In this document: in pieces, positions 6,283 to 24,535 of the stretch
Position numbering within the stretch: position 1 is the stretch's first letter
Layout: each line of letters opens with the position of its first letter
Source: an uncultured virus (IMG/VR IMGVR_UViG_3300037195_000767)
Lineage: Duplodnaviria > Heunggongvirae > Uroviricota > Caudoviricetes
IMG/VR virus record: IMGVR_UViG_3300037195_000767
Reading direction: 5' to 3' (one strand)
DNA: 24,802 bases
Notes under the pieces: model-generated
What the model was told of the DNA's origin: nothing
The model's input: only the letters and a program-made list of their open reading frames with translations
The model's database searches: none
Program-made: the position numbers and the translations under genes

Positions 6283-6283
6283 A

Positions 6284-7394: not shown

Positions 7395-7430
7395 TATAAA
7401 GACAGGTAATATATATAAAAAAATAGGATT

Positions 7431-7637
7431 ATGAGTTACTTGAATACAATTAAAAAAATAAAAATTGATTCTACAGAAAGATGGATTGTAAAATATTATG
7501 ATAGTGCTGGTCATAGAATAAGAGAAGTTAAACAAGTATACGATCCAACTGATTATAGAAAAAATGGTAGAGCTAGAGAGTTACATACTAAAGAACAATT
7601 AATATCTATTTTAGAACTACATAAAAATAATGTATAA
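7431..7637 (+). CDS. hypothetical protein (68 aa)
   Basis: ORF track. Confidence 0.7.
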   Translation: MSYLNTIKKIKIDSTERWIVKYYDSAGHRIREVKQVYDPTDYRKNGRARELHTKEQLISILELHKNNV

Positions 7638-7968: not shown

Positions 7969-7973
7969 AAAAA

Positions 7974-8594
7974 ATGATGACAAATAAATATACTAAAGAG
8001 CAAATAAAAGATACTGTAGAAAGATTAGGATATAAATATTTTACAGGAGATAACTATGATGTAAATATCATAGGTATTAGAAATTGTGATACAGGTAGTA
8101 AAGTTACTAATTTATTTGATGATACAATAACTATATCTTATAAAGATAAAAAAGGAGATTGGAAATATCATGAATATGATTGTACTACAGATCCAGGTGA
8201 TGATTGGATGGAAAATCCTTGGATAGATAAAATAGGTTGTGCTGTTTTAAAACCAGGACAATATAGAGGTTCTCATAAATTAAGATTACATGGGGGTAAA
8301 TATTTAGCATTAGGACAAAAGAAAAATGTAACAGTATATAGAGATAATAATAGAAACGATAAATATGAATTTGATGAATCATCTTGTGATACAGGTGTAT
8401 TCGGAATCAATATTCATAGAGCAACTGCTTTGGAAGGTAAAAAATCTACTTATGTAAATAAGTGGTCAGCAGGTTGTCAAGTAATAGCATCTAATGATGA
8501 TTGGTTTTCATTTTTAGAAATATGTCAGACAGCTAGGGATGTGTGGGGGAATAGTTTTTCATATACATTAATAGAAAGTAAAGATATATTATGA
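7974..8594 (+). CDS. putative endolysin, L,D-transpeptidase(YkuD)-like catalytic motif
   Basis: NIIGIR...FDD...TTDPG...L.PGQY...VYRDNN...GINIHRA...WSAGCQV contains an H-x(n)-S-x-G-C motif; lies near the holin. Confidence 0.65.
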   Translation: MMTNKYTKEQIKDTVERLGYKYFTGDNYDVNIIGIRNCDTGSKVTNLFDDTITISYKDKKGDWKYHEYDCTTDPGDDWMENPWIDKIGCAVLKPGQYRGSHKLRLHGGKYLALGQKKNVTVYRDNNRNDKYEFDESSCDTGVFGINIHRATALEGKKSTYVNKWSAGCQVIASNDDWFSFLEICQTARDVWGNSFSYTLIESKDIL

Positions 8595-8902
8595 GTAAAG
8601 AAATGAATCAATATCAAAATGATCTTGAAATGTTAGATGTATCTATGCATAATGCTTATAGAGTATTAACAAATAAAATATCTATTAAAAGATTAATAAA
8701 TAGTAGTGATGATCAAGGTATGTGGTTACCTTATGCTGATATATTTAATCCATCTAATAAAGATATAGATAGTGTTATAGAATATTATTGTGATTTAGAA
8801 GAGTATGAAAAATGTGCTGAATTAGTTAAAATTAAAGAATATCGTAAAACACAAGCTAAAATAAATAGAATAAACAACAGTAAATTAGGGGGAATAAGAT
8901 AA
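8591..8902 (+). CDS. hypothetical protein with UVR-like C-terminal motif
   Basis: IEYY...EEYEKCAEL; ATGA overlap with the lysin gene. Confidence 0.65.
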   Translation: MSKEMNQYQNDLEMLDVSMHNAYRVLTNKISIKRLINSSDDQGMWLPYADIFNPSNKDIDSVIEYYCDLEEYEKCAELVKIKEYRKTQAKINRINNSKLGGIR

Positions 8903-10705
8903 ATGGAAGAAGAAGACGAATTATATCAAAATTTATTTTCTAGAGGTGATCCTAATGCGGGAGATACTTATCCTCAACAAAGAACTGGATTAGGTAAAGT
9001 ATCTGCTCAAATTGGTAATATATTTAGACCTTCTAGTAGAGATGTTAATATAAGTACTAAAGAAGTTCCTTATCCTAGTATGGATGATTGGGGAAGATCT
9101 GAAAATGAATTACCTCTTCAATATAATTGGGATAAATATGGAGCTCCTAAATATAAGAAAAATATATTTGGTACAGAAACTTGGAAAGCTCCTATTGTTC
9201 GTCAAGAAAATCAAAAAGGTGATTTAACGAATAGAGCATATCAAGAAAAAGTAAAATGGAATCCAAATCCATGGGGAGGTGTTCTTAAAACAAAGACTAC
9301 TCCATTTGAACCAACAAAGAAAAGATTGTGGACAGAAAATTGGGATTCTGATCAATGGAATAAAAGAAATAAATACAGCAGACTAGCTCAGAAAGGATTT
9401 GGCGAAGATGGCCAGAAAGGATATAGAAAAAGATTAGATCCAACAACAGAACCATATAGATTGCATATTCCTGTAAAAGGAGAAGTACCTGATGCTCTTA
9501 CAAGATTAATGAGTCCTCTTACAGCTGGAATGAATTTAGCAACAGGAACAAATCCTGGATTTAATTATAATCCTTTGCGTAGTACGTTCTTAGGAAGTAC
9601 TAACTTTATGGGTATGAAAATGCCTAATTATAGTGATATGGATTTAGGACAAAAAGCAGCTATAATGGGTATTCATCCTCAAACAATGTTCGGAATAACT
9701 AGTCCATATTCACTTAGTCCATTTGCTCATATAACACCAGGTGAAGGAACAGATCCAGTAAGAGAAATGAAAGCTTTAGATATGATACCTTGGTTTGGTG
9801 GTGGAATCGCTGGTTCTCTTAATATGATGAAGGTTCCTGGTACACAAAAAATATTAAATCAACCATATGGATTTAATTCTAAATTTAGAAGAAATTATCC
9901 AGGAATAACAAAGGCATGGGAAAATTTCGCAACGAGTCCTGTTGTTAATACTATTTTACCTCAATTTGAAAGATGGAGTCAAAAAGGAGAAGAGATTACA
10001 ACTGATCCAACTGCAGGATTTTTTGGAAGACAAGCAGGATGGAATTTTGGCGGAGGCAAAGGTTATTATAATCAAGCAAAATCTAAAATACATCCTTTAA
10101 TACCATTTACGGGAGAATATACAATAGGAGGAGATTATAAAGGTGGTTATGAAAATCCATATAATCCAATAGATGGGCCTTTGGCGACTCTAAAAAATCT
10201 TGGACATAGATTAATAAGTCCAGATTATTATACAAAAGGAGGACTTGATAGAGATTTACGAATGGTTGGAGGTTTAGGAGCTTCTTATGAAACACCTATT
10301 CCATTATTACCTCCAAGACATAATATCTTTGATGTGAACAGATTTGATGTAGAAAGAACTAGAGAAGAAATATATGATCCAAATAAGGGTGGAAGAAAAT
10401 GGAAATGGCCAAGAATTAGAGGTGCTTCTAAAGTTGGCGATAAACAAACATCTGCTTGGGTTGATGTTGGAGGACAAAGTGTACAAGTCCCATTTGAAGA
10501 TAGATTTAAATATTCTGCAGTACCTGGGCAAGAACATAGCGATCCATTTAAAGTTAGATCAATGTATCCAGGAAGAAATAAATTAGATTATTATGGTAAT
10601 CCACGACCTACTATTCCAAAAGATTATATAGATAATCGTTCATATTATGAGAATCAATATAGTAATTGGCGTCAGAATATATATGATCAGAGTTTAGATC
10701 AATAA
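8903..10705 (+). CDS. 600-aa orphan protein, G/P/Y/W-rich
   Basis: Long intact ORF abutting the upstream stop codon; no recognisable domain. Confidence 0.75.
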   Translation: MEEEDELYQNLFSRGDPNAGDTYPQQRTGLGKVSAQIGNIFRPSSRDVNISTKEVPYPSMDDWGRSENELPLQYNWDKYGAPKYKKNIFGTETWKAPIVRQENQKGDLTNRAYQEKVKWNPNPWGGVLKTKTTPFEPTKKRLWTENWDSDQWNKRNKYSRLAQKGFGEDGQKGYRKRLDPTTEPYRLHIPVKGEVPDALTRLMSPLTAGMNLATGTNPGFNYNPLRSTFLGSTNFMGMKMPNYSDMDLGQKAAIMGIHPQTMFGITSPYSLSPFAHITPGEGTDPVREMKALDMIPWFGGGIAGSLNMMKVPGTQKILNQPYGFNSKFRRNYPGITKAWENFATSPVVNTILPQFERWSQKGEEITTDPTAGFFGRQAGWNFGGGKGYYNQAKSKIHPLIPFTGEYTIGGDYKGGYENPYNPIDGPLATLKNLGHRLISPDYYTKGGLDRDLRMVGGLGASYETPIPLLPPRHNIFDVNRFDVERTREEIYDPNKGGRKWKWPRIRGASKVGDKQTSAWVDVGGQSVQVPFEDRFKYSAVPGQEHSDPFKVRSMYPGRNKLDYYGNPRPTIPKDYIDNRSYYENQYSNWRQNIYDQSLDQ

Positions 10706-10727
10706 TAATAACGAATAAAATAAAAAA

Positions 10728-11126
10728 ATGAATATATTAAGTACAATATTTAGTGGGGGTACAAAAGATCTTGTAGAAGGTGTAGGAGGAGTTATAGATA
10801 ATTTACATACATCAAAAGAAGAAAAATTAGAAGCAGAACAAAAAGTAAAAGAATTAGTTGTTTCATATCAAAATACATTAGAAAAAGAAATATCAAATAG
10901 ATGGACTGCTGATATGAAATCTGATTCTTGGTTGTCAAAAAATATAAGGCCATTAGTTTTAGCTTTTCTAGTTCTTTCTACAGTTTTAATGATATTCATT
11001 GATGCTGGAGTAGTTCAATTTCATGTAGAAGAAAAATGGACTGACTTATTACAACTAGTTCTTATTACGGTTATAGGTGCTTACTTTGGTGGTAGATCAT
11101 TAGAGAAAGTAAAAAAGAATGCCTAA
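10728..11126 (+). CDS. 3TM-type (GTA-like) holin
   Basis: RW.ADM.SDSWLSKNIRPL followed by two hydrophobic segments and GAYFGGRSLEK, the holin_3TM family pattern. Confidence 0.8.
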   Translation: MNILSTIFSGGTKDLVEGVGGVIDNLHTSKEEKLEAEQKVKELVVSYQNTLEKEISNRWTADMKSDSWLSKNIRPLVLAFLVLSTVLMIFIDAGVVQFHVEEKWTDLLQLVLITVIGAYFGGRSLEKVKKNA

Positions 11127-13176
11127 TTCGGATATAATAATAGCACAACCTTGGGAAAATTTAGATAAATATAAAAATAATCCTGTAATACATACAGGTC
11201 AGGAATATTTAAAATTTATAAATACAGATCTTTTTAGTGAGGTTTCAAGATATTATTTAAAACATAAAGTATATACACATGCTCCAGAAGGTACTTCAGA
11301 ACATAAAGAGTTTTGGGATAGAGAAGAAAAAAGATGTAAAGAAGGACGTACTATAGGAGGTGTTCGTATAACTGGAGAACATTATGCATATTTAAATTAT
11401 GGTAGAATATTGGCTACTGTAGAAGATGGGGGAAGGTCTAGAAAAATAGATACCTTCCCTAAATTTTTAGATATGGATTATTATTGGTATCATGAATTGG
11501 AAGCTGCTGAAAAAGCAGGTCAAGGAATGATTGTTGTAAAAGCTAGACGTAAAGGATTTTCTTATAAAAATGCTTTTGGTATGGCTTGGAAATTTACTTG
11601 GTATCCTTTTTCAGTATCTATACTTGCTGCATTTGAAAAAACTTTTTGGTCTAATACTATGGAGATGGCTAAAAATATGATAAACTTTATTAATCAAAAT
11701 ACTGATTGGGCTAAAGGTTTTTTAATAGATAGACAAGATCATATAAAAGCTGGATACATAGAAAAGGATGTTATATCTGGTATTAATATTCATAAAGGAT
11801 ATAAGTCTGAATTATTAGCTTTATCATTTAAAGACGCTCCACAAAAATCTGTAGGACGTACTGCTGAACGAATGTTATTCGAAGAAGCTGGAGATTGGCC
11901 AGGATTATTACAAGCTTATCAACGTTCCTATCCTCTATTCAAAGATGGTAATATTATGATTGGTATCCCTATTATTTATGGTACTGGAGGTAACAATAAA
12001 AATGGGACTAATGCTGATTTTGAGGAAATGTTTTACAATCCTTCAGTATATGGATTAAGATCTTATGATAATGTATATGATGATAATGCGGTAGGAGAAG
12101 CAGGTTGGTTTGTAGATGATGCTTGGTATCGAGAACCTTTTGTAGATAAAGCAGGAAATGCTTTAAGAGAGGAAGCTAAAGAGGATGTATTATTAGAAAG
12201 AGAACAGAAAAAACACGCAGATCCTAAAGCTTATAATATGTTAGTTACTCAACATCCTAATACTCCTAAAGAAGCTTTTTTAAGAAATGAAGGATCTGTA
12301 TTTCCAGCTATTGAATTATATAATGTTTTATCTAGATTAAAAGCAAATGATAGATATAAAAAAATAGGAACTCCAGGAAAACTATATATAGAAGATAATA
12401 AAATAAGATTCAGGCCTGATCTTGAAAAGCAACTAGAACCTTTAAATAGATTCCCACATAAACCAAATGATGATGTAACAGGTTGTCCTGTTATATATCA
12501 ACATCCTCCAGAAAATATACCTTATGGTTTATATAAAATTGGATTAGATCCTGTAGCATTTGATAAGTCAGGTAGTAGATCTTTAAATGCCGCTTTTGTA
12601 TATAAATCATTACAAAGTTTTGAACATGGTTATGATGAGATTGTAGCAGAATATGTAGGTAGGCCAGATAATATTGAAATATATAATAGAAATTTAGAAT
12701 TATTATCTGAATATTATGGTGGAGCTGAGATTATGTTTGAGAATGATAGGGGTGAGGTATTATCTTATTTCAAGAGAAGGGGTAAATTAAATTTATTAGC
12801 AGATCAACCAGATAATGTTATATCTAAAGTTATAAAAGATTCTACAGTAGCTCGTATAAAAGGGTGTCATATGAATGAGAGAATGAAAGATGCTGGAGAG
12901 AAATTTATACTTAGATGGTTATGGACTGAAAGAGGATCAAATGTAGATGGAGAAAAGGTTTATAATATGGATTTGATAATGAGTCCTGCTCTTTTAGAAG
13001 AACTAATTCAGTATCATAGAGGAGGAAATTTTGACCGTGTGATGGCATTAATGCAAGTTATGTTTATGGTTGAAGAAACTTATGAACAAGAAATTGGACA
13101 AGAAAAACGTAAAAATCATGCTGCAGATTACCTTATAAGTAATATTAATACGATGTTTAGTAGGACTAGTCGATAA
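11119..13176 (+). CDS. terL: terminase large subunit (crAss-like)
   Basis: Walker A VVKARRKGFSY, Walker B MLFEEAG, coupling motif YGTGG, RNase H-like nuclease IGLDP ... FEND ... NFDRVMA; immediately upstream of the portal gene. Confidence 0.93.
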   Translation: MPNSDIIIAQPWENLDKYKNNPVIHTGQEYLKFINTDLFSEVSRYYLKHKVYTHAPEGTSEHKEFWDREEKRCKEGRTIGGVRITGEHYAYLNYGRILATVEDGGRSRKIDTFPKFLDMDYYWYHELEAAEKAGQGMIVVKARRKGFSYKNAFGMAWKFTWYPFSVSILAAFEKTFWSNTMEMAKNMINFINQNTDWAKGFLIDRQDHIKAGYIEKDVISGINIHKGYKSELLALSFKDAPQKSVGRTAERMLFEEAGDWPGLLQAYQRSYPLFKDGNIMIGIPIIYGTGGNNKNGTNADFEEMFYNPSVYGLRSYDNVYDDNAVGEAGWFVDDAWYREPFVDKAGNALREEAKEDVLLEREQKKHADPKAYNMLVTQHPNTPKEAFLRNEGSVFPAIELYNVLSRLKANDRYKKIGTPGKLYIEDNKIRFRPDLEKQLEPLNRFPHKPNDDVTGCPVIYQHPPENIPYGLYKIGLDPVAFDKSGSRSLNAAFVYKSLQSFEHGYDEIVAEYVGRPDNIEIYNRNLELLSEYYGGAEIMFENDRGEVLSYFKRRGKLNLLADQPDNVISKVIKDSTVARIKGCHMNERMKDAGEKFILRWLWTERGSNVDGEKVYNMDLIMSPALLEELIQYHRGGNFDRVMALMQVMFMVEETYEQEIGQEKRKNHAADYLISNINTMFSRTSR

Positions 13177-13223: not shown

Positions 13224-15680
13224 ATGGGATATTCATTTCCGCAACAAAAATTAACTAGAAAACAAAAAGCAAAAAATAATTTTGCTTGGGGTAAAAATGT
13301 TCTAGATGAGATAGATAAATACAATTCAAAAGGTTTTGATGGTAGATTAGATAATACCAGAAAAAAAATAAACTATGATATATATAATGGACAGATAGAT
13401 CGTGATGATTATGAATATGTTTGTAAACCTTATGGTGTAGATGGTGTTGGAGAATTACCTGCAGAATTACGTCATTATGATATCACTACTCCTAAATTAA
13501 GAGTTTTATTTGGTGAAGAAATAAAAAGACCTTTTAATTATAAATTAATAGCTACTAATTCAGAAGCTATAACTGAGAAAGAAAGAGAAAGAATGAGAAT
13601 GATTGCTGAATATGTAAAAGAATCAATCATGTCTAGAGTTAATGCTATGGTAGCTCAAGAAGCAGAAAAAATGCAAGCTGGTGCTCCACAAGAATCTATG
13701 ACACCAGAAGCTCAACAACAAATGGATCAGCAACTTCAACAGATTCAACGATCCATGACTCCTCCAGAAATAGAAGAATATATGAAGAGAGATTATGTTG
13801 GATCTAGAGAAATACAAGGACAACAAATATTAGATTATTTAATAAGAAAAGAAAAAGTAAAAGAAAAATTTAGCAAAGGATGGAAACATGCTTTGATTGC
13901 TGGTGAAGAAATTTATTGGACAGGTATTGTAAATGGTGAACCTACCATGAGAACTGTTAATCCTTTATATTTTGATTACGATAAAGATCCAGATTTAGAC
14001 TATATACAAGATGGTCAATGGGCAAAATATATTATGAGAATGACTCCAGGATCTGTGATAGATACTTTTGGAGAATACCTAACAGATAGACAAATTAAAG
14101 ATTTATATTCTGATACAGGAGTAACTGGAGCTAATCATATAATTGATGAGACATTTGGTGAATTTTCATATGATCATTCTGATACATTTGATTTAGATAA
14201 TTTTGGTACTAGTGATGGACAAGCAAGTTCTGAATATATTAGAGTGGTTCATTGTGAATGGAGATCTTTACGTAAATTAGGTTTTTTAAAATTTATAGAT
14301 GATAAAGGAGTACCACAAGAAACTATAGTAGATGATACATATGTAAAAGATGAAGCTAAAGGTGATATAGAAATAAAATGGGAATGGATACCTGAGATAT
14401 GGGAAGGTACTAAAATAGAAGGTGATATATATGTTAATATAAGACCTAAGCCAAATCAATATAAAGATCTTGATAATTTGTATAGTTGTAAATTAGGTTA
14501 TATAGGAATAGCTTATAATAATCTTAATTCTAGATCTGTTTCAGTTATAGATAGAATTAAACCATATCAATATATGTATAATATTATTATGTATAGATTA
14601 GAAATGGATTTAGCTTCTGATAAAGGTAAAAAGTTTTTAGCGGATATTAATCAGATACCTAGTGATCTTGGAATGGATATGCAAAAATGGATGTATTATT
14701 TTGACGCTATGGGTATCGCTTGGGTTAATCCTCATGAAGAAGGTAATAGAGGAAAACCTCATTCTTTTAATCAATGGCAAGCAGTAGATTTATCTATGGC
14801 TCAAACTGTACAACAAAAAATACAGTTATTAGAATATTTAGAAATGCAAAGTGGTGAAGTTGCTGGTGTTGCTAAACAAAGAGAAGGACAAATGGGGCCT
14901 AGAGAAGGATTAGGTACCTCACAACAAGCTATTGTACAATCATCTCATATTACAGAAGATTTATTTAGTACTCATAATGGTGTTAAAAAAGCTGTACTTG
15001 AATCACTAATAGAAACAGCTAAAGTAGCTTGGAGTTTAGATGAACAAACTTCTGGAAGTAAAAAACAATCTAAAAAAATACAATATGTATTAGATGATAT
15101 GAGTGTTCAAATGCTTAGTATAGATCCAGATATATTTACTAATTCTTCATATGGTATATTTGTATCTGACTCTGGTAAAGACCAAGAAACATTTATGGTG
15201 TTACGTCAATTAGCTCAAGCTGCTCTTCAAAATCAACGTGCTGAATTATCTGATGTTATTAAGATGTTCTCTACTAATTCAACATCCGAACTTAAAACTA
15301 TATTAGAAAAAGCTGAAGAACAACGTAAAGCTCAAGAACAACAAATGCAACAATCACAACAAGAATCTCAAGAACGTATGGCTCAAGCTAAACAAGAACA
15401 AGAAAGACAAGAAATGATGTTAGATAAATATAAAGTTGATGAAGATAATGCTACTAAATTAGAAATAGCTAGAATGAAAGAATTAGGGCAACAAAGAGCT
15501 TTAGATCTTAATAGAAATAAAATTCCTGATATTATGGAAGTTGAAAAGTTTAAACAAGAAGCTGAAAATAAAAGAGAAAAAAATAATATAGAACAACAAA
15601 AATTAGATCTTAAGCGTAAAGAATTAGATATAAAATCTAGGGATGTTCAGAAAAAAGATAAAGAAAAAAATAAAAAATAA
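13224..15680 (+). CDS. portal protein (crAss-like)
   Basis: Starts FPQQKL; contains NYDIYNG, PA.L.HYDI..PK...L.GEE.KRPF, VVH.EW.S..K.G and W.WI.E.WEG.KI; ends in a Q/E/K coiled-coil tail with DLNRNKIPD; lies after TerL. Confidence 0.9.
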   Translation: MGYSFPQQKLTRKQKAKNNFAWGKNVLDEIDKYNSKGFDGRLDNTRKKINYDIYNGQIDRDDYEYVCKPYGVDGVGELPAELRHYDITTPKLRVLFGEEIKRPFNYKLIATNSEAITEKERERMRMIAEYVKESIMSRVNAMVAQEAEKMQAGAPQESMTPEAQQQMDQQLQQIQRSMTPPEIEEYMKRDYVGSREIQGQQILDYLIRKEKVKEKFSKGWKHALIAGEEIYWTGIVNGEPTMRTVNPLYFDYDKDPDLDYIQDGQWAKYIMRMTPGSVIDTFGEYLTDRQIKDLYSDTGVTGANHIIDETFGEFSYDHSDTFDLDNFGTSDGQASSEYIRVVHCEWRSLRKLGFLKFIDDKGVPQETIVDDTYVKDEAKGDIEIKWEWIPEIWEGTKIEGDIYVNIRPKPNQYKDLDNLYSCKLGYIGIAYNNLNSRSVSVIDRIKPYQYMYNIIMYRLEMDLASDKGKKFLADINQIPSDLGMDMQKWMYYFDAMGIAWVNPHEEGNRGKPHSFNQWQAVDLSMAQTVQQKIQLLEYLEMQSGEVAGVAKQREGQMGPREGLGTSQQAIVQSSHITEDLFSTHNGVKKAVLESLIETAKVAWSLDEQTSGSKKQSKKIQYVLDDMSVQMLSIDPDIFTNSSYGIFVSDSGKDQETFMVLRQLAQAALQNQRAELSDVIKMFSTNSTSELKTILEKAEEQRKAQEQQMQQSQQESQERMAQAKQEQERQEMMLDKYKVDEDNATKLEIARMKELGQQRALDLNRNKIPDIMEVEKFKQEAENKREKNNIEQQKLDLKRKELDIKSRDVQKKDKEKNKK

Positions 15681-17053
15681 TGAATACTCTAAAAATGCTT
15701 GGAAAAAGAAACCAAGTTCCATCATATGAAAATGGGACTAAAATTACTGATCCTCCAACTGATCCTCCAGTTAGTAATTTAGCACCTGATCCTGTAATTG
15801 GTAATCAAATGGGTCTTGGATTTGAGTTCGAATGTGATACAGAAACTGGTGCAAATTGTTCAAATAAAACAGGGCGTATGTTTAGATTAGGACTTAAAGG
15901 TAGTTTTGAAGGCAAAAAAGGAGCATATGGACAACCAACAAATCTTGGACCAGGGTGGAATAATCAGGGAGAATACGTGGAAAATAGAATAGGTACAAAT
16001 CGAGATTATGATTTATCTGCTAATATAGGTGGATATCTTAGAACAGATTTAGATAAACTATTTGACCCTTACGGTAGTCCACATTCATTAGGAAACAAAT
16101 TACGAGATAGAAATTGGAATCCAGTACATTTAAATTTAGGATACAATAGACATATAAAAGACTTTATGACAGGAGAAGGTAGTAATAATCTTACTGCTAA
16201 ACTAGCTCATTCTGGAGATCAATTTACAGGAAGTGCAGGACATTCAGGATTTTTTGGTAATAGAGGTGGTTCGAGTAGACCTGGGTTTTCATATGGTCTT
16301 CAAGGTAATTATAATTTAGATCAAAAACGATTAGATAATATAGGAGCATTTGGACGAATAGGAATGATGGGACCATTAGGTATTCATGGATATGCGGGAA
16401 TTAATCCTCAAACGTGGCAACCAAATTTTGGAGGAGGTATGAGTATTAAATTTGATAAAGGAGGTGCAGTTCCTTCATATGATAATGGTGATGATGTTAA
16501 TTTAGGTTTAGGAGGAAGTGAACTAAGTTATGGTACAAGTGGACTTACAACTAAAATTAATCCTACTTTAAATATGGGTAGGTTAAATCTAGGAGGTGAG
16601 TTTGGTGGTTTACATAGTTTTAATGATGACGTATCATCAAAATATTTTTTAGGGGGTACTGGTAGATTTAATTTTGATTCTTCTGGTAGAAGAGTAAGAG
16701 ACTGGGATCCTAGATTTATGGGATCTTTAAGTGGTAATGTAGGATATGGTAGAACAGGATCTGAAAAACAAGGCAATCTTTCAAATCAAGGATTAGCAGC
16801 TTCTGGTAGATTAGATTTAGGTGTTGGTAGACCTGGAAAGACTTTTTGTGTAGGTAATGCTTGTGATGCTCCTCCAGTAATACCTTGGGATATTGGAGCT
16901 TTTGGAGAGTATGGAAATCAATATTCCTTAAATCCTGGTTTAAGAACTGGTGTTAAAGGACAATATAATTGGTTATCTGGAGAAGGTGGATATGATTTAA
17001 CAAATAAATCTCCATTTTTTAAAGCTGGTCTTAATATACCTTTGTCAAGGTAA
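15680..17053 (+). CDS. Gly/aromatic-rich two-module protein, putative tandem beta-barrel virion cargo
   Basis: Coupled to the portal gene (TAATG). Amphipathic G-rich strands. Carries two copies of the VPSYxNG tag and an internal IGAFG repeat. Confidence 0.6.
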   Translation: MNTLKMLGKRNQVPSYENGTKITDPPTDPPVSNLAPDPVIGNQMGLGFEFECDTETGANCSNKTGRMFRLGLKGSFEGKKGAYGQPTNLGPGWNNQGEYVENRIGTNRDYDLSANIGGYLRTDLDKLFDPYGSPHSLGNKLRDRNWNPVHLNLGYNRHIKDFMTGEGSNNLTAKLAHSGDQFTGSAGHSGFFGNRGGSSRPGFSYGLQGNYNLDQKRLDNIGAFGRIGMMGPLGIHGYAGINPQTWQPNFGGGMSIKFDKGGAVPSYDNGDDVNLGLGGSELSYGTSGLTTKINPTLNMGRLNLGGEFGGLHSFNDDVSSKYFLGGTGRFNFDSSGRRVRDWDPRFMGSLSGNVGYGRTGSEKQGNLSNQGLAASGRLDLGVGRPGKTFCVGNACDAPPVIPWDIGAFGEYGNQYSLNPGLRTGVKGQYNWLSGEGGYDLTNKSPFFKAGLNIPLSR

Positions 17054-20000
17054 TGAATTTATTACAACAATATAATAATCAGAAAAATTCTTCTAGATCT
17101 TATGCTAATGGTACTATAGTTTCTAATGATTTAGAAAATTTAATTTCAAAATATAAAGAAGGAACTCTTTCAGATAACGAGAAAAAGTTACTAATGTCAC
17201 AATTACAAGAAATTAGTCAGACTCCTCTAAATACATTTGAAAGTTTTCAAAAAGATTTTTATAAAACTTCTATTAGTCAAGGAACAGATTTTTATTTAAA
17301 TACTGGTCTTGAGACTAATAAAGAATTATCTGAGTATAGTGGTAGGAATCCATTAGGTCAACGTTATGAAAGTTACAACCAGTTTTTTCCAAGAGATATT
17401 ATAACTGAAGAGGATATAACTAAATTAAAGAAAGGTCCTAACTATCAAGGTTTTGTTATGGAGACTGATACCAAGGATAGAGAAGTTCAAGTATTTCATG
17501 ATGAGACCGATTTAATTGGTCCTAGGAATGTTAGAAGAAATAGATATGTAACTACTGAAGGAGAACAATTATTTTATTATAACAAATCTGGTGATTTAGT
17601 TTCAGTTCCTGATTTCGGAGGAGATCAAAATAAAAAAGGTGAATTTTTAAAGAAATTAGCTTATAATGGTATAAGAGTATTTGATAAAACTCATGTTAAT
17701 ATAGCTGGATGCGGTGATAATATGACCTGTATAACAGCTGGTACTAATATGACACAAAATAGTATAGAAGCTTGGAATACAGCTATTGGAGATGAAAATA
17801 GTCCTTATTATATTGAAGATAAAAAACAACGTAAAGCAGCTTTTATAAATGCTAATACAGAATCTATGTCTGCTATGTCTCATTTAAAATTTTGGGGAGA
17901 TCTTTATAGTTCAGGTGATCAAAGTCGTAATGCGAAATTAGCTCGTCAGAATCAGTTATTCTATGAACAAGCTGGATTTTTACAAAGATCAATAAATAGA
18001 GATGATTTCTTTACAGAAACTGAAGGAGGTGATATGATATTAAATCCTGAAGCGATAGTTAATTTCTTTGATCAAGAAATGCAAATAGGAAATATTATGG
18101 GTATACACTCAGGTCAAGGATCTGGTCCTGGTCATGCTATATCTTATCAGGGTGGTTTATTTTATAAAGGGGATAGAGGTAATACTCCTTTTGATGTTAC
18201 TACATTACAAGGACGTGAACATATGATGGGGTATTTACAAAAACAAATAAACGATGGTGTGGATCCTAAGGATATTATGAAGAATCTTCAATTTTTAGCT
18301 TCTAATGATTATACAGAAGCTGGAAAATTGGGTTCTCCTTATCAATATAGAACCCAAGAATTCGGAGATATGTTTGCGAGTGATGATTATAAATCAACTT
18401 ATGGTAATATGTGGTATACAAATTTTCAAGGAAATACAGATTATCAAAATTATTTAAAACAACTTAATAAACAAGATGAACTATATCAAACAATTTTAAC
18501 AGATCTTTCTGGTGGAGAATCAGAGTTTAGTAGACAATCTATAGATTATCAAAATATAATCCAGAAAACAAACAGAGGTTTTAGAGGTAGGAGAAGAATG
18601 CAAGAAGAAGATGTAAATATAGAAGAAGATGTAGAAGAAGAAGGACTGATAGATCGTGGATATAACTTTCTACGTAACCTTGTACCTGGTTTTATAGGGG
18701 AACCAGAACAAGAACAAGGAGGAATAGTACCACCATCTTTTAAGAGGGGTGGTACTGTAGGTTCTGGTTGTCCTGAATGTGATGCTAAAAGATTAGCTCA
18801 ACGTATGTCTCCACCTTCATTTCATCATGGAGGTGAACATGATAATAGTTTAATAGATTTAGAAAATAACGCATATTATAATAATTGGAATCAAAATATA
18901 CAAAACTACGCAACATCTATATCAGATTTAGAAAGCAAAATACAATGGAATAAAGATGTACGTGCATCATTACCTAGATTCAATAAAAAAAGAAAAAACT
19001 TAAAAAAAGAAAATAAAGTTTTACAAGCTAAATTAGATGATCAAATAATACTTAGTGAAAATGAGATTAAATACAGGGATAAATGGGTAAATGATCAAAC
19101 TGCTTTGTATCCAGTACAACTAATAGTCTATCCTCCTGGATATTCTCAAATGGAATCAGGTCATATAGAATCAAGAATGTTAGGTAATTATAATGGAAAT
19201 AATATAAATATAGATGCTTTGGGTTGGCTTGGGAACATAACTGTAGGCCAATTTGATGGAGATTTATCAGAAGAAGAAATAATGGCGCTTTATAAAAAAA
19301 GTCTTGATTTAGATAATCCTGTAACAAAAGCTACGGATATAGATGGAAATGTATTTTATCAGTCTAGTACTTCTGTTAATTCATGGTATGATGGTAATAG
19401 AGAGATTACTTATGATCCTAACGATCAAATTCATTATGGTGATCCTAATATAAGAACAGCTGTACTTAATTTAAATCATAATCAAATACAAAGGTATATG
19501 AATAGCGCTATGGATACTAATCCAACAAGTGGGGGATTAAATCAAGAAGCAAGAGAAGGTGTAGGTCTTGGGGGTATAATTGCAGAACTTTCAGGAGAGG
19601 TATCGTATGATGAAGATGGTACAAGAATTTATACTGGAAATATTCCTATAGGTGATGCAGGATATAGTTTTATAGGTAATAATTGTGGAGATGCTACTTG
19701 TAGAGCTTTTGGAATAAATCCTAATGAAACTGATAGGATATTAGGAACAACTACAGATCCTCAAGAAGTTTTTGATTATATAATTAATGCCGATCAGTTT
19801 AATTTAATACCTGGTAGTTTGACAGGTACTAAAATACAGGGTGTTGATGAAGCTGGAAATTATATAGATAATAGAGAAGCGTATGTAGCAGGTGGTTCTG
19901 AATTATTTAGTATACCTAATTATGTTCTTCAAGATTTATTAATATTAGAACAAAAAGGATTTACTTTAGATAAATTAAGTGAAGGTACTTTGGGTGATAT

Positions 20001-23000
20001 TTTAAAACATACTCCTAATATAGGAAAAGAATTAACAGAGAATATATTAAATTTTAATGATCGTTGGTATACTGCAGAATGGCAAGAAGACATGGCATTA
20101 GATGCTATAAAAGCTATAAAAGTTAGTAATGTGGTAGATTTGTTACTTGATCCTAGTAATACTGATAGAATTTCTGGTATAGCAAATGCTATTAAGACGG
20201 GTGATTATAGTAAAATTGATGCAGGAGATATGATAGAATTTTATATAAACAGCACTAAAACGGGAGAAATATATGATGATTTGGGAATAATAGGAGATTA
20301 TCTAATGTGGGAAAAGAAAGTTCTTGCTGATTTTGCTCAGAATACATTTGATGTTGGTAAGGGTGTTTATGATCAAGCAAAACGGGATATTAATAATATT
20401 AAACTGGCAAATGAAGTATTTAAAAATTATTCACCTGTTTATAAAGATATAGTTGAAGCTCCCAGAAATCTTTATAATTATATGTTTGGTCTGAATCAAG
20501 GAACTATTGAACCATATAATCCTGACGTTGATGTGGATTATACTAATACTAATTACCGAAATTTAGATATGAGTAATTTTACTCCAAACTTATGTATTAG
20601 CGGTAAGTGTGATCCTCCACCTATTAATAAAGACTATGAATGGTTATCTAAAGAATTATTTGAAGAAGAGGAAAAAGGACCAATTCAGTATCAAGATAAT
20701 AGTAATATACCTATGGGTCTGCAGCTTAGTACTGAAGAACGAGAAGCTATTATGAAAGCTCTAACTGAAGGTATGAAAACAGGAGGATTCGTTAATAGAT
20801 CTTATCAAGATGGAGATGAAGTTATAATGGATCCAAAAGTTATGAATCAAATGGATTATAGAAATATGATTCAATCAACATATTCAGATTTATTTAAAGA
20901 AGATGAGTTTGGAACGTTAACTTATTATACTCCAGGTAAAGATTATATTGAAAAAGGGGTTTTGAAAAATACTGTAGAAACATATGATAATTGTATACAT
21001 GGAGTTTGTTATACTTTAAATCAGATATTAGGAGATTATTCTTTTTTAGGAGATAAAGATGGATTTGGAGAATATGTAGGTAATGAATCTTTTGCTGAAA
21101 ATGCAGCTCGTGAAGGATTTATACATCGAGCAGATTATAAAACACATGGTTTAAATGTAGGAGATATTCTTCAAAGTACTCGTCCTAGAGAAACTTCTGT
21201 AGACGCTATGGGAGAACAATTATATTTACCTAGAGAAGAAGGTGCACTTATAAATAATCTTGTTTTGAATGTTACCGATAAACTTGGTCTTACAAATAAA
21301 GAAAAAACAACTGAATTCATAGGAAATAAATATCCTAGTCATGCACATGTAGTATTAAATAAAAGAGTTAATTCTGAAGGAATTACTGAATATTTAGTTG
21401 CTCAGAATGCGGGAAGAGACATAATGAAAGCTAGATGGGAAAGTGAACAAATATTATTAAAGGAATTAGATAATGGTGATAAGTTTTTAAATTCTTATCA
21501 AGGCTTAGATGGTATGAATAAGATTAAACAAGATGGTCTAAATAAAGTACACCAAATTAAAGGTAATAATGAATATGCTAATTTATATAATGAAAGTGTA
21601 ATTCCTAAATATACTGTTGACGATAATACTCTATTTTTTAGTAATGATAATACATTAGATATTTTTACTGATAATTATTTAGAGATAGGTAAAATGAGTA
21701 ATTTACCACCACATATATTAAATCAGTTAGCTATTAATCAATTAGGTATTAAAGAAGAAGAAACAGGAAGTGGGTCTAGTAGAAAAGCAGCTAAATCAGT
21801 AATGAATATGTTAGATAATATGCATCCTGGAAATTTACAAAAAAAGATGAGAGAAAGACAATATGAAGATGGTCTTTTTTTTAGTGGTGATGATATTTCT
21901 TGGAAAGAAGTTTTACATAAGGAAGGTATTATAAATGATAAAGCGATCGCTCAAGAAATTTTAGATTATATTGGTACATTTAAAAGTAATTATTTACCAT
22001 TAACTTTTGATGATATTTATGGTAAATCATATAAAGATATATTTCCTACTTTTAAGAGAGAAGAAGGTAGAGTAAATCTGAGATTATATGATTTTATTAG
22101 TTATTTAGATAGAGAAAATAAATTAAATAGTTTTGAACAAAAACATGCATTTGTAAATCAAGAACAAAGTAAAGGAACATACCAGCAGAAAAACTTAAGT
22201 GAAAGAGGCAAACATATGAGAGATTTATTGTTTCCAGGTAGTGATGGATTTGTTGGAAAAGATCAACAATTTATATCATCTTTATCTTTATCTATTGATA
22301 ATTATCATAAAATAGCTAAAATGTATCCAGATTTAAATGAATCAGAATTAATAAATTTAACTACATTAATGCATAATGCTCCAGGTAAAGCAATGTCTAG
22401 AGATTATGTTATGCATTTTCTTAAGAATAATTCTGTAGATTATGTTAATAATGTTAATAATGCAGTTTCAAATTATAATATTGATACAGAATTTCCTGAT
22501 GATATGGAAACAATATATTTAGATGAAGTAGAAATAACGGAAAAAAGATCAGAGCCTGGAGTAAGATCAGGATTTACTTTAAATCCGTTTTCTAAAGAGA
22601 AAAAGTTTTTAGGTTTATTTGAAGAAGGTGGAGAAGTAGTACCATCATATCATGAAGGAGATGAAGTACATGATCATCCTCATCCATACGAAGATAAAGG
22701 GTTTAGTGATATATTAGTAGATTTTGGAAAAAGTCAGATGGATAAACTAGGAAAGGGACTTGAAGAATATCATAAGTTAAAAGAAGAAGGAGTAGATGCA
22801 GGAGAGTATTTTAAAGGAATAGATTTTAATCCATTTGTAAAAGGAACAACGATGTCTTTTGAAGGATATAGAGCTTATCCAATAAATTTAAAAGGGGAAG
22901 TTGAAATTAGAGATGCAAATGGAAATGTAGATAAAACTAGAACTTATTTAGCAAATAATTATTTAGGTAGTGGATGGACTAAAAAAGCAGAAAGTACACT

Positions 23001-23166
23001 AAGTTCTATTGGTGACTGGTATGACAGATTGGGTGATATTGACTGGTCAGGAATGGGGTCTAGTAGATTTGAACCAAATGAAGTTGAAAAGAATTTAGGT
23101 ATTACTAAGCATGATAAAGTAATGTGGCATAGTCAAAGTTCACAATCTATGGGATCTATGAAATAG
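17053..23166 (+). CDS. 2037-aa multi-module protein with papain/NlpC-P60-like and lytic transglycosylase-like domains
   Basis: Intact ORF coupled to the upstream gene (TAATG). Modules are separated by GG..PS[YF]xxG tags. Cys/His and E-T / SxGxxQ / HN / YVxxV motifs are detailed in the findings. Confidence 0.7.
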   Translation: MNLLQQYNNQKNSSRSYANGTIVSNDLENLISKYKEGTLSDNEKKLLMSQLQEISQTPLNTFESFQKDFYKTSISQGTDFYLNTGLETNKELSEYSGRNPLGQRYESYNQFFPRDIITEEDITKLKKGPNYQGFVMETDTKDREVQVFHDETDLIGPRNVRRNRYVTTEGEQLFYYNKSGDLVSVPDFGGDQNKKGEFLKKLAYNGIRVFDKTHVNIAGCGDNMTCITAGTNMTQNSIEAWNTAIGDENSPYYIEDKKQRKAAFINANTESMSAMSHLKFWGDLYSSGDQSRNAKLARQNQLFYEQAGFLQRSINRDDFFTETEGGDMILNPEAIVNFFDQEMQIGNIMGIHSGQGSGPGHAISYQGGLFYKGDRGNTPFDVTTLQGREHMMGYLQKQINDGVDPKDIMKNLQFLASNDYTEAGKLGSPYQYRTQEFGDMFASDDYKSTYGNMWYTNFQGNTDYQNYLKQLNKQDELYQTILTDLSGGESEFSRQSIDYQNIIQKTNRGFRGRRRMQEEDVNIEEDVEEEGLIDRGYNFLRNLVPGFIGEPEQEQGGIVPPSFKRGGTVGSGCPECDAKRLAQRMSPPSFHHGGEHDNSLIDLENNAYYNNWNQNIQNYATSISDLESKIQWNKDVRASLPRFNKKRKNLKKENKVLQAKLDDQIILSENEIKYRDKWVNDQTALYPVQLIVYPPGYSQMESGHIESRMLGNYNGNNINIDALGWLGNITVGQFDGDLSEEEIMALYKKSLDLDNPVTKATDIDGNVFYQSSTSVNSWYDGNREITYDPNDQIHYGDPNIRTAVLNLNHNQIQRYMNSAMDTNPTSGGLNQEAREGVGLGGIIAELSGEVSYDEDGTRIYTGNIPIGDAGYSFIGNNCGDATCRAFGINPNETDRILGTTTDPQEVFDYIINADQFNLIPGSLTGTKIQGVDEAGNYIDNREAYVAGGSELFSIPNYVLQDLLILEQKGFTLDKLSEGTLGDILKHTPNIGKELTENILNFNDRWYTAEWQEDMALDAIKAIKVSNVVDLLLDPSNTDRISGIANAIKTGDYSKIDAGDMIEFYINSTKTGEIYDDLGIIGDYLMWEKKVLADFAQNTFDVGKGVYDQAKRDINNIKLANEVFKNYSPVYKDIVEAPRNLYNYMFGLNQGTIEPYNPDVDVDYTNTNYRNLDMSNFTPNLCISGKCDPPPINKDYEWLSKELFEEEEKGPIQYQDNSNIPMGLQLSTEEREAIMKALTEGMKTGGFVNRSYQDGDEVIMDPKVMNQMDYRNMIQSTYSDLFKEDEFGTLTYYTPGKDYIEKGVLKNTVETYDNCIHGVCYTLNQILGDYSFLGDKDGFGEYVGNESFAENAAREGFIHRADYKTHGLNVGDILQSTRPRETSVDAMGEQLYLPREEGALINNLVLNVTDKLGLTNKEKTTEFIGNKYPSHAHVVLNKRVNSEGITEYLVAQNAGRDIMKARWESEQILLKELDNGDKFLNSYQGLDGMNKIKQDGLNKVHQIKGNNEYANLYNESVIPKYTVDDNTLFFSNDNTLDIFTDNYLEIGKMSNLPPHILNQLAINQLGIKEEETGSGSSRKAAKSVMNMLDNMHPGNLQKKMRERQYEDGLFFSGDDISWKEVLHKEGIINDKAIAQEILDYIGTFKSNYLPLTFDDIYGKSYKDIFPTFKREEGRVNLRLYDFISYLDRENKLNSFEQKHAFVNQEQSKGTYQQKNLSERGKHMRDLLFPGSDGFVGKDQQFISSLSLSIDNYHKIAKMYPDLNESELINLTTLMHNAPGKAMSRDYVMHFLKNNSVDYVNNVNNAVSNYNIDTEFPDDMETIYLDEVEITEKRSEPGVRSGFTLNPFSKEKKFLGLFEEGGEVVPSYHEGDEVHDHPHPYEDKGFSDILVDFGKSQMDKLGKGLEEYHKLKEEGVDAGEYFKGIDFNPFVKGTTMSFEGYRAYPINLKGEVEIRDANGNVDKTRTYLANNYLGSGWTKKAESTLSSIGDWYDRLGDIDWSGMGSSRFEPNEVEKNLGITKHDKVMWHSQSSQSMGSMK

Positions 23167-23311: not shown

Positions 23312-24535
23312 ATGAGTGAAACTAAAAAAGAAGTAAAAGACGTATCAAATTCTACAAGTGTAAATACTATGTGGGATATTGATGACGCAACGAATTTTGA
23401 AAATGCTTTTGATATGGCAGAATCAACTAGTGCTGATCCTATTATCGATTTTGGAACAGAGACTAAAGAAGAAACTATATCAAAAGAAAAAGAACAAACA
23501 GATACTAAATTAGGTAATTTGGAAGAAAAAAATGATCCTGTTCCTGTTAAGGAACCAGAATTAGATCTTCCAGAAGTAAAAGAAGAAATGTCTGAAGAAA
23601 TCTCTGACTTTGATCCAGATCAAGTTGAAGGAGAATCTACATCAGATGATAATATTAATAATGATCCTGTAGCTATTTTTGCTAGTATGCTACAAGAGAA
23701 AGAGATAATAGATATTGATGAAGATTTTGAACCTTCTGAAAAAGGATTAATAAATGCTGTCGAATCTACAATTGATAGTAGAGTTAAAGAAGAACTTGAT
23801 TTATTTCAAAACACATTAACTGGAGAAGGTAGGGCGCTTTTAAAGCATCTTATTAATGGTGGTGATGTGGGTAATTTTGTTAGTACATATTCACAAGTAG
23901 GATTCGATAAAGTTGATTTAAAGAATGCTAATAATCAAAAATATGTATTAGGAGAGTTTATGAAATTAAGAGGAGATTCTGATCAAGAGATTAAAGAAAA
24001 TATTGAGTTATATGAGGATAATGGTATATTAGCTAAGAAAGCTGGATTAGCGAAGAATAAACTTGTTGATTATCAAGATAAACAAAAACAAGAATTTGCT
24101 GATAGACAAGTTTACGCTGCTCAAGAAAAAGAGCGTGTAAGGGCTGAAGTAGTGTCTAATATACAAGATACAATAGCAAATTCTGAAGAGATAAAAGGTG
24201 TTCCTTTATCTAGAAAAGCTAAAAAAGACTTGTTATCCTATATGACTGTTCCTTCTGTTAAGATTAATGATCCTAGCGGTGGTACACAATATGTAACTCA
24301 ATTTCAAGCTGACGAGATGAAATCATCTAATGATATAGATGAGTTTATTTTAAAAGCTTATCTGCGAATGACTGACTATGATATGTCTAGTGCAAATAAA
24401 AAATCAGTTACCGCATTTAGCTCTAAACTTAGAAATAGTCTCCAGAATAAGAAAACTATGACGGATATTAAAGCTATGTTTGGAGGAAACAAAAAGACTA
24501 CTAGTTCAAAATCTAGTAGTTCTTGGGATTTGTAA
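23312..24535 (+). CDS. acidic scaffold-like head protein (gene preceding MCP in crAss-like phages)
   Basis: Very acidic, disordered N-terminus followed by a helical/coiled-coil C-terminal part; directly upstream of the capsid gene. Confidence 0.7.
   Translation: MSETKKEVKDVSNSTSVNTMWDIDDATNFENAFDMAESTSADPIIDFGTETKEETISKEKEQTDTKLGNLEEKNDPVPVKEPELDLPEVKEEMSEEISDFDPDQVEGESTSDDNINNDPVAIFASMLQEKEIIDIDEDFEPSEKGLINAVESTIDSRVKEELDLFQNTLTGEGRALLKHLINGGDVGNFVSTYSQVGFDKVDLKNANNQKYVLGEFMKLRGDSDQEIKENIELYEDNGILAKKAGLAKNKLVDYQDKQKQEFADRQVYAAQEKERVRAEVVSNIQDTIANSEEIKGVPLSRKAKKDLLSYMTVPSVKINDPSGGTQYVTQFQADEMKSSNDIDEFILKAYLRMTDYDMSSANKKSVTAFSSKLRNSLQNKKTMTDIKAMFGGNKKTTSSKSSSSWDL

Follow-up and report, generated by a model that had tools for sequence, protein, structure and literature searches.

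The carriage of modular proteins in phage heads is already known (PMC5512222, PMC10172136). Here we analyse two candidate proteins of this kind, P0001 and P0002, encoded side by side in a 24,802-base stretch of DNA (the window) from an uncultured tailed virus, IMG/VR record IMGVR_UViG_3300037195_000767. Their genes lie between a portal gene and a scaffold-like gene, and their products share a short peptide, the tag, which recurs seven times across the pair. Judged by comparison with related sequences, the tag is a local dialect of a widespread double-glycine (GG) node of crAss-type multi-module phage proteins.

Among the closest described systems is the cargo of Bacteroides phage crAss001, in which gp44 is the muzzle protein and the next two genes encode cargo proteins 1 and 2, gp45 and gp46; in the accessible part of that account, the choice and loading of several megadaltons of cargo in the crAss-type head and tail is left unexplained (PMC10172136). 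gp45 resembles the window proteins in being a large virion-internal crAss-type protein with Phi-xx-GG nodes (Phi being a hydrophobic residue) bordering variable segments. It differs in having no recognised enzyme modules, and its nodes go unmentioned in the same portion of PMC10172136. A second system is that of the polyvalent proteins, described in the available text of PMC5512222 as multi-module proteins (2 to 15 domains) whose genes lie beside portal and terminase genes and whose packaging and delivery along with the DNA is predicted; they show extensive mosaicism, and peptidase modules are proposed to process them. The window proteins are likewise multi-module and encoded in a head gene neighbourhood, and one relative, P0046, contains ART-PolyVal; they differ in that the signature Pfam domains (ART-PolyVal, MuF, MPTase and others) were not detected in P0001, P0002 or their pieces. 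The word 'linker' does not occur in the available text of PMC5512222, so a conserved joint motif does not seem to be part of the polyvalent-protein description given there.

With phage T4 the window shares a short N-terminal peptide common to unrelated cargo. The T4 internal proteins (IPI-III and Alt) possess an N-terminal capsid-targeting sequence that is removed by the prohead protease gp21, and they are ejected with the DNA; gp21 cuts at L/I-x-E and also processes capsid and scaffold proteins. The window motif differs in that it also occurs internally and is absent from the portal and the scaffold-like protein, and no head protease was found in the 9 open reading frames (ORFs) scanned. T7 gp16, of the podophage core, and virion hydrolases that combine CHAP and lysozyme-type domains use wall-cutting domains to open peptidoglycan at infection, and one module of P0002, D3, is predicted to have both fold types. 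To our knowledge, neither gp16-type nor other virion hydrolases come in tag-delimited cassettes or with a conserved joint peptide. Finally, Gly-Gly joints are processed in virion polyproteins of adenovirus (by adenain) and African swine fever virus (ASFV; by pS273R), and in leader peptides by C39 peptidases. The window resembles these in having GG at its joints and a predicted papain-like fold in the same polyprotein, and differs in that its hydrophobic residue stands at P5 rather than P4 and in that this fold, D3a, is more like a cell-wall amidase or endopeptidase.

Two aspects of the locus appear not to have been described previously: the GG node with a lineage-specific core as a joint, together with the similar nodes in gp45, and the use of the portal-to-scaffold slot as a site for a cargo cassette. 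Searches for the node and core motif strings returned no relevant paper within limited literature coverage. The presence of the node both in gp45, an experimentally shown cargo protein, and in a large unannotated modular family provides a concrete, mutable handle on cargo loading. The joint also explains how envelope-cutting and other modules are swapped, and it offers annotators a means of dividing into domains the giant 'hypothetical proteins' that marine and gut phages encode. Were it sufficient for loading, it would be a tool for placing chosen proteins in phage heads.

A seven-fold tag in two coupled genes

P0001 (457 amino acids (aa); 15680..17053, plus strand) is made up of a leader with a half-tag, a Gly-rich segment (B1), a full tag and a second Gly-rich segment (B2). 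P0002 (2037 aa; 17053..23166, plus strand) comprises a leader, module D1, linker L1, module D2, a tag, module D3, a tag and module D4. The original prediction had placed seven copies of one peptide in these two coupled genes, and translation combined with a regex scan recovered all of them, each on the plus strand. As predicted, a half-tag stands near each N-terminus: copy 1, NQVPSYENGT (15710-15739), at aa 11-20 of P0001, and copy 3, SSRSYANGT (17089-17115), at aa 13-21 of P0002. Copy 2, FDKGGAVPSYDNGDDV (16451-16498), is a full bipartite tag between B1 and B2. Copy 4, QEQGGIVPPSFKRGG (18709-18753), and copy 5, PPSFHHGGEH (18811-18840), both belong to L1, while copy 6, MKTGGFVNRSYQDGDEV (20773-20823), occupies aa 1241-1257 of P0002 and copy 7, FEEGGEVVPSYHEGDEV (22618-22668), aa 1856-1872. 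Directly after copy 7 comes a His-rich run, HDHPHPYED (22669-22700), which reads HVHPHPDED in P0012.

In a six-frame translation of the window, the pattern S[YF]..G[DGT] matches seven times, always within the P0001 and P0002 ORFs; it has no match in the 4,584 residues of the 19 other window ORFs of at least 80 aa. None of 5000 residue shuffles of P0001 + P0002 reached seven matches (mean 0.40, maximum 4), and none reached the four matches observed for the long form GG.V.{1,2}S[YF]..G[DGT] (shuffle mean 0.001), figures that overstate the significance somewhat because the regexes were written after the copies were known. The excess of the tag in these two ORFs is nonetheless beyond doubt. Compared pairwise within the genome, the tag cores share 9-15 of 18 bases, and synonymous codons vary among the copies (GGA/GGT, TCA/TCT, GTT/GTA, CCA/CCT), so the tag is kept at the peptide level and not as a DNA repeat.

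Degenerate-DNA scans of IMG/VR gave 2 loci for GG.VPSY..GD.V and 6 for GG.V..SY..GDEV, about chance level; all but two of these loci lie on high-GC contigs and none is a crAss-like polyprotein. Tag-like strings were seen in two further places. One, KAGTYTMGDEVVTLGDGDYRSYNQLVGKK followed by a stop, lies near a C-terminus at G001:C6:9616-9638 (L048; 27% GC; G001 string KAGTYTMGDEVV), where chance predicts one in 600 kb. The other place is an ORF of more than 1194 aa (1836-5417) of a high-GC phage (L029, from IMG/VR; 66% GC), which contains both LAAGGRVPRYADGDQV and FAKGGVTKK; either chance produced these strings, or they point to a comparable node in phages of an unrelated group.

Tag copies as borders of exchangeable modules

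The tag copies are borders between independently exchangeable modules, as is evident from three separate kinds of evidence: whole-module differences among homologues, differing cargo in the slot of portal relatives, and structure prediction. That the tag would sit at boundaries of interchangeable domains had been proposed from the letters of the window, and whole modules are indeed gained or lost at a tag in P0009, P0010, P0013 and P0080, alongside the slot swaps described below. P0002 consists of at least four modules, as judged from the presence or absence of whole modules in its homologues P0012, P0013 and P0080. P0013 (1266 aa) has D1 and D3 without D2, the gap extending from within copy 5 to the equivalent point in copy 6; it ends 9 residues after a YKVGG node, the counterpart of copy 7, and so is without D4. 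P0080 (1089 aa) has the order leader-D1-L1-D2 and ends 13 residues after YKNGG. Copy 3 has counterparts in both, KSYENGG in P0013 and NSYHHGG in P0080.

Module D1 (~aa 22-546; 17116..18690, plus strand) is marked in alignment A1 by the conserved strings AGCGDNMTCITA and GHAISYQGG, and has no Pfam match and no usable Atlas match. D2 (aa 597-1240; 18841..20772, plus strand), which also lacks a Pfam match, is present in P0012 and P0080 and absent from P0013. D4 (aa 1873-2037; 22669..23163, plus strand) is small and also occurs as the stand-alone proteins P0038, P0051 and P0062. At ~6900-11250 of L023, a P0012-like gene is found as two or three separate ORFs, reflecting either an assembly frameshift or stop, or a real split.

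Between D1 and D2, translation and alignments define a composite linker, L1 (18709..18840, plus strand), in which copies 4 and 5 flank a CxxC element. This element, GSGCPECDAKRLAQ / TVGSGCPECDAKRLAQRMS (18754-18810; aa 568-586), contains CPEC at 18769-18780 and a basic, helix-like stretch. It was otherwise found only in P0012, P0013, the N-terminus of P0006 and the contig of L004, and P0080 has a Cys-free stretch instead. A degenerate scan of IMG/VR for SGC.ECDAK gave 8 loci; only L013, which shares its contig with L004, is related, the remaining 7 being Cys-rich ORFs of no relation. The element may serve in metal binding or in pairing. Cysteines are also seen elsewhere: P0009 and P0010 have C-x-Y-C at the C-terminus, and gp45 has a Cys pair and a basic stretch just before its node at 425-435.

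Alignment of P0001 with its homologues (P0006-P0010) divides it into two modules. In alignment A2, its half-tag PSYENGT lies opposite YQMGG / YQKGG of distant homologues, and DKGGAVPSYDNGD lies opposite KKGGVKKYQYGG. In P0009 and P0010 a few residues follow the aligned KKGG / KEGG before the chain stops, without B2. P0007, P0008 and P0009 have other N-terminal modules, namely a DUF192 domain and a HELGH module (the latter in P0009), joined by YQxGG. An AlphaFold model of P0001 (6 sequences) reached a predicted local distance difference test (pLDDT) score of only 35, with strands only, and is not interpretable. The idea that membrane barrels are among the effector modules therefore lacks support, this model neither supporting nor excluding a barrel.

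The model of P0002 residues 1225-1890 (26 sequences; mean pLDDT 71.9) is more informative, showing confident domains between stretches of pLDDT <50. One such stretch, model residues 13-33, corresponds to aa 1237-1257, exactly at copy 6; another, residues 593-666, corresponds to aa 1817-1890 and contains copy 7. Copies 6 and 7 are thus placed in low-confidence linkers and outside the folded domains. Neither P0001 nor P0002, whole or in pieces, has a Pfam or PHROG family. A tblastn search of 50,697 cultured-phage records likewise gave no match to P0001 or P0002, the 57-aa linker matching only at E 0.6 or worse.

A wider family of double-glycine nodes

Searching 1.84 billion representative proteins by phmmer with P0002 residues 1241-2037 as the query yielded 68 proteins at E 0.001 or better, 49 of them at 1e-10 or better and most of them 500-2500 aa long. 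The best-conserved core among the matches corresponds to P0002 ~1679-1805, in the D3b part of D3. Members of this D3 family contain bipartite nodes, such as KKYGGMLKKYQGDEEG, MRYGGSLPDLPKYQNGGKTDP, YRDGGEVESYQNGG, YKNGGWLDKYQTGG and KEKYGGWLDEEEFRRGGPTNP.

The positions of these nodes were analysed in 66 proteins (P0002 and 65 of the 68 matches, the three D4-only matches giving no envelope), with D3-type envelopes drawn by a hidden Markov model of the D3 region built with the tags left out. All 45 bipartite nodes fall outside the envelopes and 0 inside. The simpler Phi-xx-GG, which alone is low in information and was, like the other regexes, written after the data had been seen, occurs 10 times in 29,521 aa inside envelopes (0.34 per 1000) versus 198 times in 43,579 aa outside (4.54 per 1000).

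Nodes also gather at protein ends. Among the 67 of 69 proteins that start with M, 34 have GG in the last 25 aa, compared with 15.1% of internal windows (p 1e-11), and for a W-x-x-x-Phi core the counts are 18 in the last 25 aa and 7 in the first 25 aa, the background being 0.75%. Many members start with M(K)(G)WLDKYQxGG or end with GGWLDKYN, GGILYKK or KGGYLSKYRNRK. Where a gene is split, the core is retained on both sides (GGWLDKYN and a stop, then M.GWLDKYQNGG), and stand-alone relatives begin just ahead of the core's aromatic residue and end 0-4 residues past it.

Read from these proteins, the general node is Phi-x-x-GG, a hydrophobic core of ~5 residues and x-x-G-[G/D/T], often followed by D-P. 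The core varies by lineage (WLDKY, WQIIE or G-x-IEY, with V-x-PSY here) and is uniform within one. One claim of the original prediction needs adjusting in this light. That no characterised system has the tag holds for the exact dialect, which was found nowhere else, but not for similar nodes, which exist in the structurally characterised gp45. The wider node is strongly enriched between the domains of these proteins and not within them.

Known families are rare in these relatives. Only 2 of 30 have any Pfam family, namely the ART-PolyVal of P0046 (E 7e-10) and a borderline PG_binding_1, and a PHROGs search of 18 relatives assigned a family to 0. A scan of 185,579 species genomes for the D3 core found no relative, and therefore no sign of prophage carriage.

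Links to the crAss001 cargo protein gp45

Shared modules, synteny and similar GG nodes support a link between the window protein family and gp45. A locus search for the D3 core with a three-sequence alignment (A4) identified three IMG/VR contigs of 28-32% GC (L036, L037 and L038). In all three, the D3-family gene directly follows a gene of 1472-1809 aa (phrog_28748 or phrog_37948) that is a homologue of the gene for crAss001 gp44, and so it occupies the position of gp45, the protein entered as 'Cargo protein 1' in PDB 7QOG and in four further structures. Segments of gp45 itself occur in D3-family proteins: P0059 (56% over 71 aa, E 3e-18), P0056 (5e-11), P0060 (2.6e-6) and P0050 (0.003), these BLASTP E-values being relative to an 80-protein set.

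gp45, of 90.8 kDa at full length, has GG nodes at 17-21, 209-210, 260-264, ~330, 425-435 (FGGWLNTQGG) and 559-563. In six gp45 orthologues from different genera, the invariant columns include these GG positions, and large indels begin immediately past them. According to the accessible text of PMC10172136, residues 425-552 are located at the portal wing, where they interdigitate with loops 337-380, and the tail barrel holds residues 214-245. On these residue ranges, the portal-bound part opens with the node at 425-435 as its first ordered stretch, and its end is followed by another node. The same text treats gp45 as one chain bridging the tail barrel and the portal, with mass spectrometry peptides from 275-300 and 307-320, and contains no word beginning with cleav- or proteoly- (PMC10172136). 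The 2018 paper on crAss001 (PMC6235969), in the part available, reports gel bands of 85 and 100 kDa. A role for D4 as the portal-binding domain of gp45 was considered and rejected, the hhalign probability against gp45 425-570 being 1%.

Module D3 as a predicted pair of wall-cutting enzymes

D3 is most likely a two-enzyme peptidoglycan-cutting module, as predicted from its model. Its first domain, D3a (aa 1264-1486, model residues 40-262; 20842..21510, plus strand), has a papain fold of the CHAP/NlpC-P60-like kind by VIA-align and Atlas, and its second, D3b (aa 1522-1814, model residues 298-590; 21616..22494, plus strand), is a lysozyme-like or SLT-like lytic transglycosylase domain by VIA-align. 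In a VIA-align search of the D3 model against 48,161 PDB representatives, in which Z under 8 is common by chance, the closest neighbours of D3a were 5d74 (Z 9.1, root-mean-square deviation 4.0, 132 aligned), 7cfl (8.0), LytE (7.8) and PlyGRCS (7.8), with C39 double-glycine proteases weaker (6mpz 7.0, 7s5j 6.4 and 3b79 6.4). For D3b they were MltF (5aa1, Z 8.6), a GH23 chitinase (7.7), MltC (7.7), MltE (7.2), Slt (7.0) and a g-type lysozyme (6.9).

Among the best 50 matches, 41 fall on model residues 29-267 and are nearly all NlpC/P60, CHAP, C39 or related, and the other 9 fall on residues 289-622, with lytic transglycosylases, a GH23 chitinase and a g-type lysozyme among them. The phi812 baseplate and Andhra tail tip are also among the fold neighbours of D3. 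An Atlas look-up placed D3 with NlpC/P60 and CHAP clusters at 0.91. Further, a candidate triad of D3a (C1314, H1430 and N1452) is nearly invariant in 26 sequences, and E1570 of D3b is invariant in the same number. The assignment is based on these three observations together: two families fill the list of matches (41 + 9 of 50), the C, H, N and E residues are conserved, and the Atlas clusters agree. It bears out the suggestion that an envelope hydrolase would be among the modules, with fold matches and conserved catalytic residues pointing to a CHAP/NlpC-P60-like domain joined to a lytic-transglycosylase-like one.

Other searches with D3 were negative. There was no Pfam match at the sequence level, SLT included; Foldseek searches of PDB and BFVD with the model gave nothing at E 0.001 or better; and a sequence search of PDB with profile A5 gave nothing credible.

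A proposed cargo slot between the portal and scaffold-like genes

The gene order of the head region is TerL (large terminase), portal, P0001, P0002 and the scaffold-like gene. The portal gene (818 aa; 13224..15680, plus strand; phrog_6547 portal, E 3.7e-181) overlaps that of P0001 in a TAATG at 15678-15682, and the genes of P0001 and P0002 overlap in the same manner at 17051-17055. Downstream, the slot is bordered by the gene of P0004 (407 aa; 23312..24535, plus strand; phrog_16294, E 1.5e-10), which we infer to encode a scaffold from its position and acidic composition. In the Flavobacterium phage Fpv1, nothing separates the portal gene from the counterpart of the scaffold-like gene, and the major head protein gene comes next. 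Because the portal gene directly precedes the phrog_16294 counterpart there, P0001 and P0002 are read as an insertion into the head module. The gene order of Fpv1 and the TAATG overlaps together confirm the proposed insertion between the portal and scaffold-like genes with coupling to the portal.

Portal loci with downstream DNA were compared in L004, L005, L006, L016, L017, L019, L021, L023, L025 and L027. L022 and L024 were left out, duplicating L006 and L016 in length and in the positions of the match, as were L015, L018, L020 and L026, which end within the portal gene. The comparison supports the view that the slot holds different cargo in different relatives. Of the phages whose portal is 99% identical, one (L006) has the window's P0001 in the slot, and in four (L004, L005, L021 and L023) the 21-residue leader is retained and leads into another module, of 214 aa. 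Where the portal is 63% identical, the slot is occupied by a single gene, of 752 aa (L016 and L017) or 448 aa (L019 and L025), with the scaffold-like counterpart after it in all four. The C-terminal 217 aa of the 752-aa and 448-aa proteins are 95% identical, starting at EEGGDV / EDGGDI, and upstream of this common part the two are unrelated, so that the swap point lies at xxGG. The 448-aa protein consists upstream of a leader, MYNNILNNLINEYQNGGETDPP, and an SLT lytic transglycosylase (Pfam E 1.8e-16). The 752-aa protein of L016 has a HEFAH motif and no match by tblastn in the 50,697 cultured-phage records. The slot is empty in Fpv1 and L027.

Recombination at the joints

The joints also serve as recombination arms. 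When the window is aligned codon by codon to L004, a phage with 99% portal identity, the DNA of leader codons 1-45 and of linker codons 561-605 is ~100% identical, with one synonymous difference in the 45 linker codons. D1, between them, has 42-78% DNA identity and 20-87% protein identity per 15 codons. Since ~100% identity flanks a D1 of 42-78%, leader and linker are read as arms for the exchange of a diverged D1 allele. A similar pattern is seen between P0002 and P0012, in which residues 571-600 are 100% identical and the flanks 28-73%. As L1 can act as a recombination arm, this 100% identity is not by itself evidence of purifying selection; the evidence for purifying selection on the tag peptide is the synonymous codon differences within the genome.

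Proposed mechanism and alternative explanations

P0001 and P0002 are proposed to be head cargo, or ejection proteins, made with the portal by translational coupling. They would be packed into the procapsid and leave the head before the DNA does, and the ejected D3 would then cut peptidoglycan. The glycines of the node would be hinges for storage and for module-by-module threading through portal and tail, and the hydrophobic core would act as a short docking strand that a phage partner specific to the lineage recognises, our best guess for this partner being the portal wing or head interior. The node may well be such an uncut hinge with a docking strand, and this is the explanation that we tentatively favour. 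We prefer it because split genes keep the core on both sides and the core is lineage-specific, and because a gp45 node stands at the edge of the portal-bound part of a protein described, in the accessible text, as a single chain with cleavage unmentioned. Each cassette protein begins with the downstream half of a joint, and relatives end just after the upstream half.

Several observations weigh against this account. The exact window dialect was in no other IMG/VR contig in the degenerate-DNA scans, and both the tag and node patterns were, as noted, written after the fact. GG is not enriched in the first 25 aa of the family proteins (11/67, p 0.44). The D3 fold matches are middling (Z 9.1 and 8.6) and the Foldseek searches empty. 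The connection to gp45 is indirect: the hhalign probability between the P0002 family alignment A1 and gp45 is 0.1%, BLASTP of gp45 against P0001 and P0002 gave no match at E below 1, and at the sequence level BLASTP found no homologue of gp45's portal-bound domain in either protein. The window genes follow the portal gene and not the muzzle gene, and the portal contact of the gp45 node 425-435 is taken solely from the residue range given in the available text of the paper. Finally, gp46, the second crAss001 cargo protein, is without any Phi-xx-GG, so the node is not a universal cargo label.

An alternative that seems rather unlikely is that the node is a protease site, cut at every joint after GG or after the aromatic residue. 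The products would have N-termini such as ENGT, DNGDDV and QDGDEV, the leaders would be removed like the T4 capsid-targeting peptides, and the cutting would fall to D3's own papain-fold domain or to some unseen head protease. The half-tags, 11-21 residues from both N-termini, do look like parts of propeptides, and the termini of stand-alone relatives at the core resemble free cleavage products; the retention of the core on both sides of split genes, however, fits a functional peptide of each module better than a cut site, and gp45 is described, in the text accessible to us, as one bridging chain. Double glycine is a classic site of papain-fold and clan CE processing enzymes (C39 leader peptidases, adenain and ASFV pS273R), the fold matches of D3a include C39 double-glycine proteases (6mpz, Z 7.0), and the Cys-His-Asn set is nearly invariant. 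Yet D3a is nearer to peptidoglycan hydrolases (Z 9.1-7.8) than to C39 (7.0) and is always fused to the lytic-transglycosylase-like domain, the usual pairing in virion lysins. Further, adenain, PLpro and C39 sites have a hydrophobic residue at P4 of the GG, whereas in the node it stands at P5. Zincin-like HExxH modules do occur in slot proteins of relatives (HEFAH in L016 and HELGH in P0009), but no prohead protease family was found by Pfam or PHROGs in the 9 window ORFs scanned, and the tag, unlike the motifs of head proteases, is absent from the portal and scaffold-like protein.

It is improbable that the node is a flexible, recombination-friendly linker without a specific reader, conserved as homology arms between co-infecting phages. 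There is precedent in the tail fibre genes of T-even phages, in which conserved motifs serve as recombination sites. The mosaic of L004, with its ~100% arms around a 42-78% D1, is what such a linker would produce, every observed architectural difference breaks at a node, and the indels of gp45 orthologues start at nodes. Against this, tag copies that share only 9-15 of 18 core bases are a poor substrate for homologous recombination and point to selection on the peptide. The core is also lineage-specific yet uniform within a lineage, and single-module proteins retain it at their very ends, where there is no need for a partner in recombination.

Very unlikely is the last alternative, that the proteins are external virion parts or secreted factors for lysis or the host envelope, with the tag a cell-wall- or membrane-binding repeat: hydrolase pairs like that of D3 do occur in tail-tip lysins (phi812 baseplate and Andhra tail tip), endolysin-like and holin genes lie 5-8 kb upstream in the window, and there is no direct homology to a known cargo protein, but both genes sit in the head module with translational coupling to the portal, the family is found at the position of gp45 and has segments in common with it, and the tags lie in predicted disordered linkers and not in a repeat domain.

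Returning to the node as a docking hinge, a broader and doubtful proposal is that it forms a lineage-tuned address code of crAss-type phages, in which modules flanked by the dialect would be recognised by one phage-encoded reader and loaded into the head. The reader would be the portal wing or head interior, or the papain-fold enzyme of the polyprotein, and cutting would perhaps release the cargo. If this were true, new cargo could be plugged in by recombination at the joints, and the code would be the first described packaging grammar for Crassvirales cargo.

Other features of the window

The window has a GC content of ~30% and is part of a low-GC tailed-phage genome. Its genes include, in addition to those discussed above, an endolysin-like gene and a holin gene; the large terminase gene matches phrog_6681 (E 1e-124), and the phrog_16294 gene comes later than the portal. 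By tblastn, the portal has relatives in 154 phage records, the best being Flavobacterium phages (37% identity), with Cellulophaga phages and crAss-like Bacteroides phages further among them.

Two contigs of a 600-kb genome bin (73% complete, 50 contigs) are 100% identical to window 1-4274 and 4176-11927; the contigs that contain bases of window 1-11927 are G001:C20, G001:C8 and G002:C1. The portal cassette, capsid gene and muzzle gene were not found in the G001 and G002 bins. The match reflects either phage fragments binned with a small-genome organism or a hint at the host.

Between a 103-aa gene and the holin gene, at 8903-10705 on the plus strand, lies a 600-aa Gly/Pro/Asn-rich ORF with no Pfam or PHROG family and with a few Phi-xx-GG strings (YTKGG and DYKGG). 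In L006, L021 and L023, which have 99% portal identity, the 103-aa gene adjoins the holin gene without this ORF, which is therefore a second insertion in the window. Finally, at ~2723-4640 the direction of the genes changes from minus to plus, there are few ORFs of at least 80 aa and the GC skew reverses; a divergent promoter or an origin may lie here.

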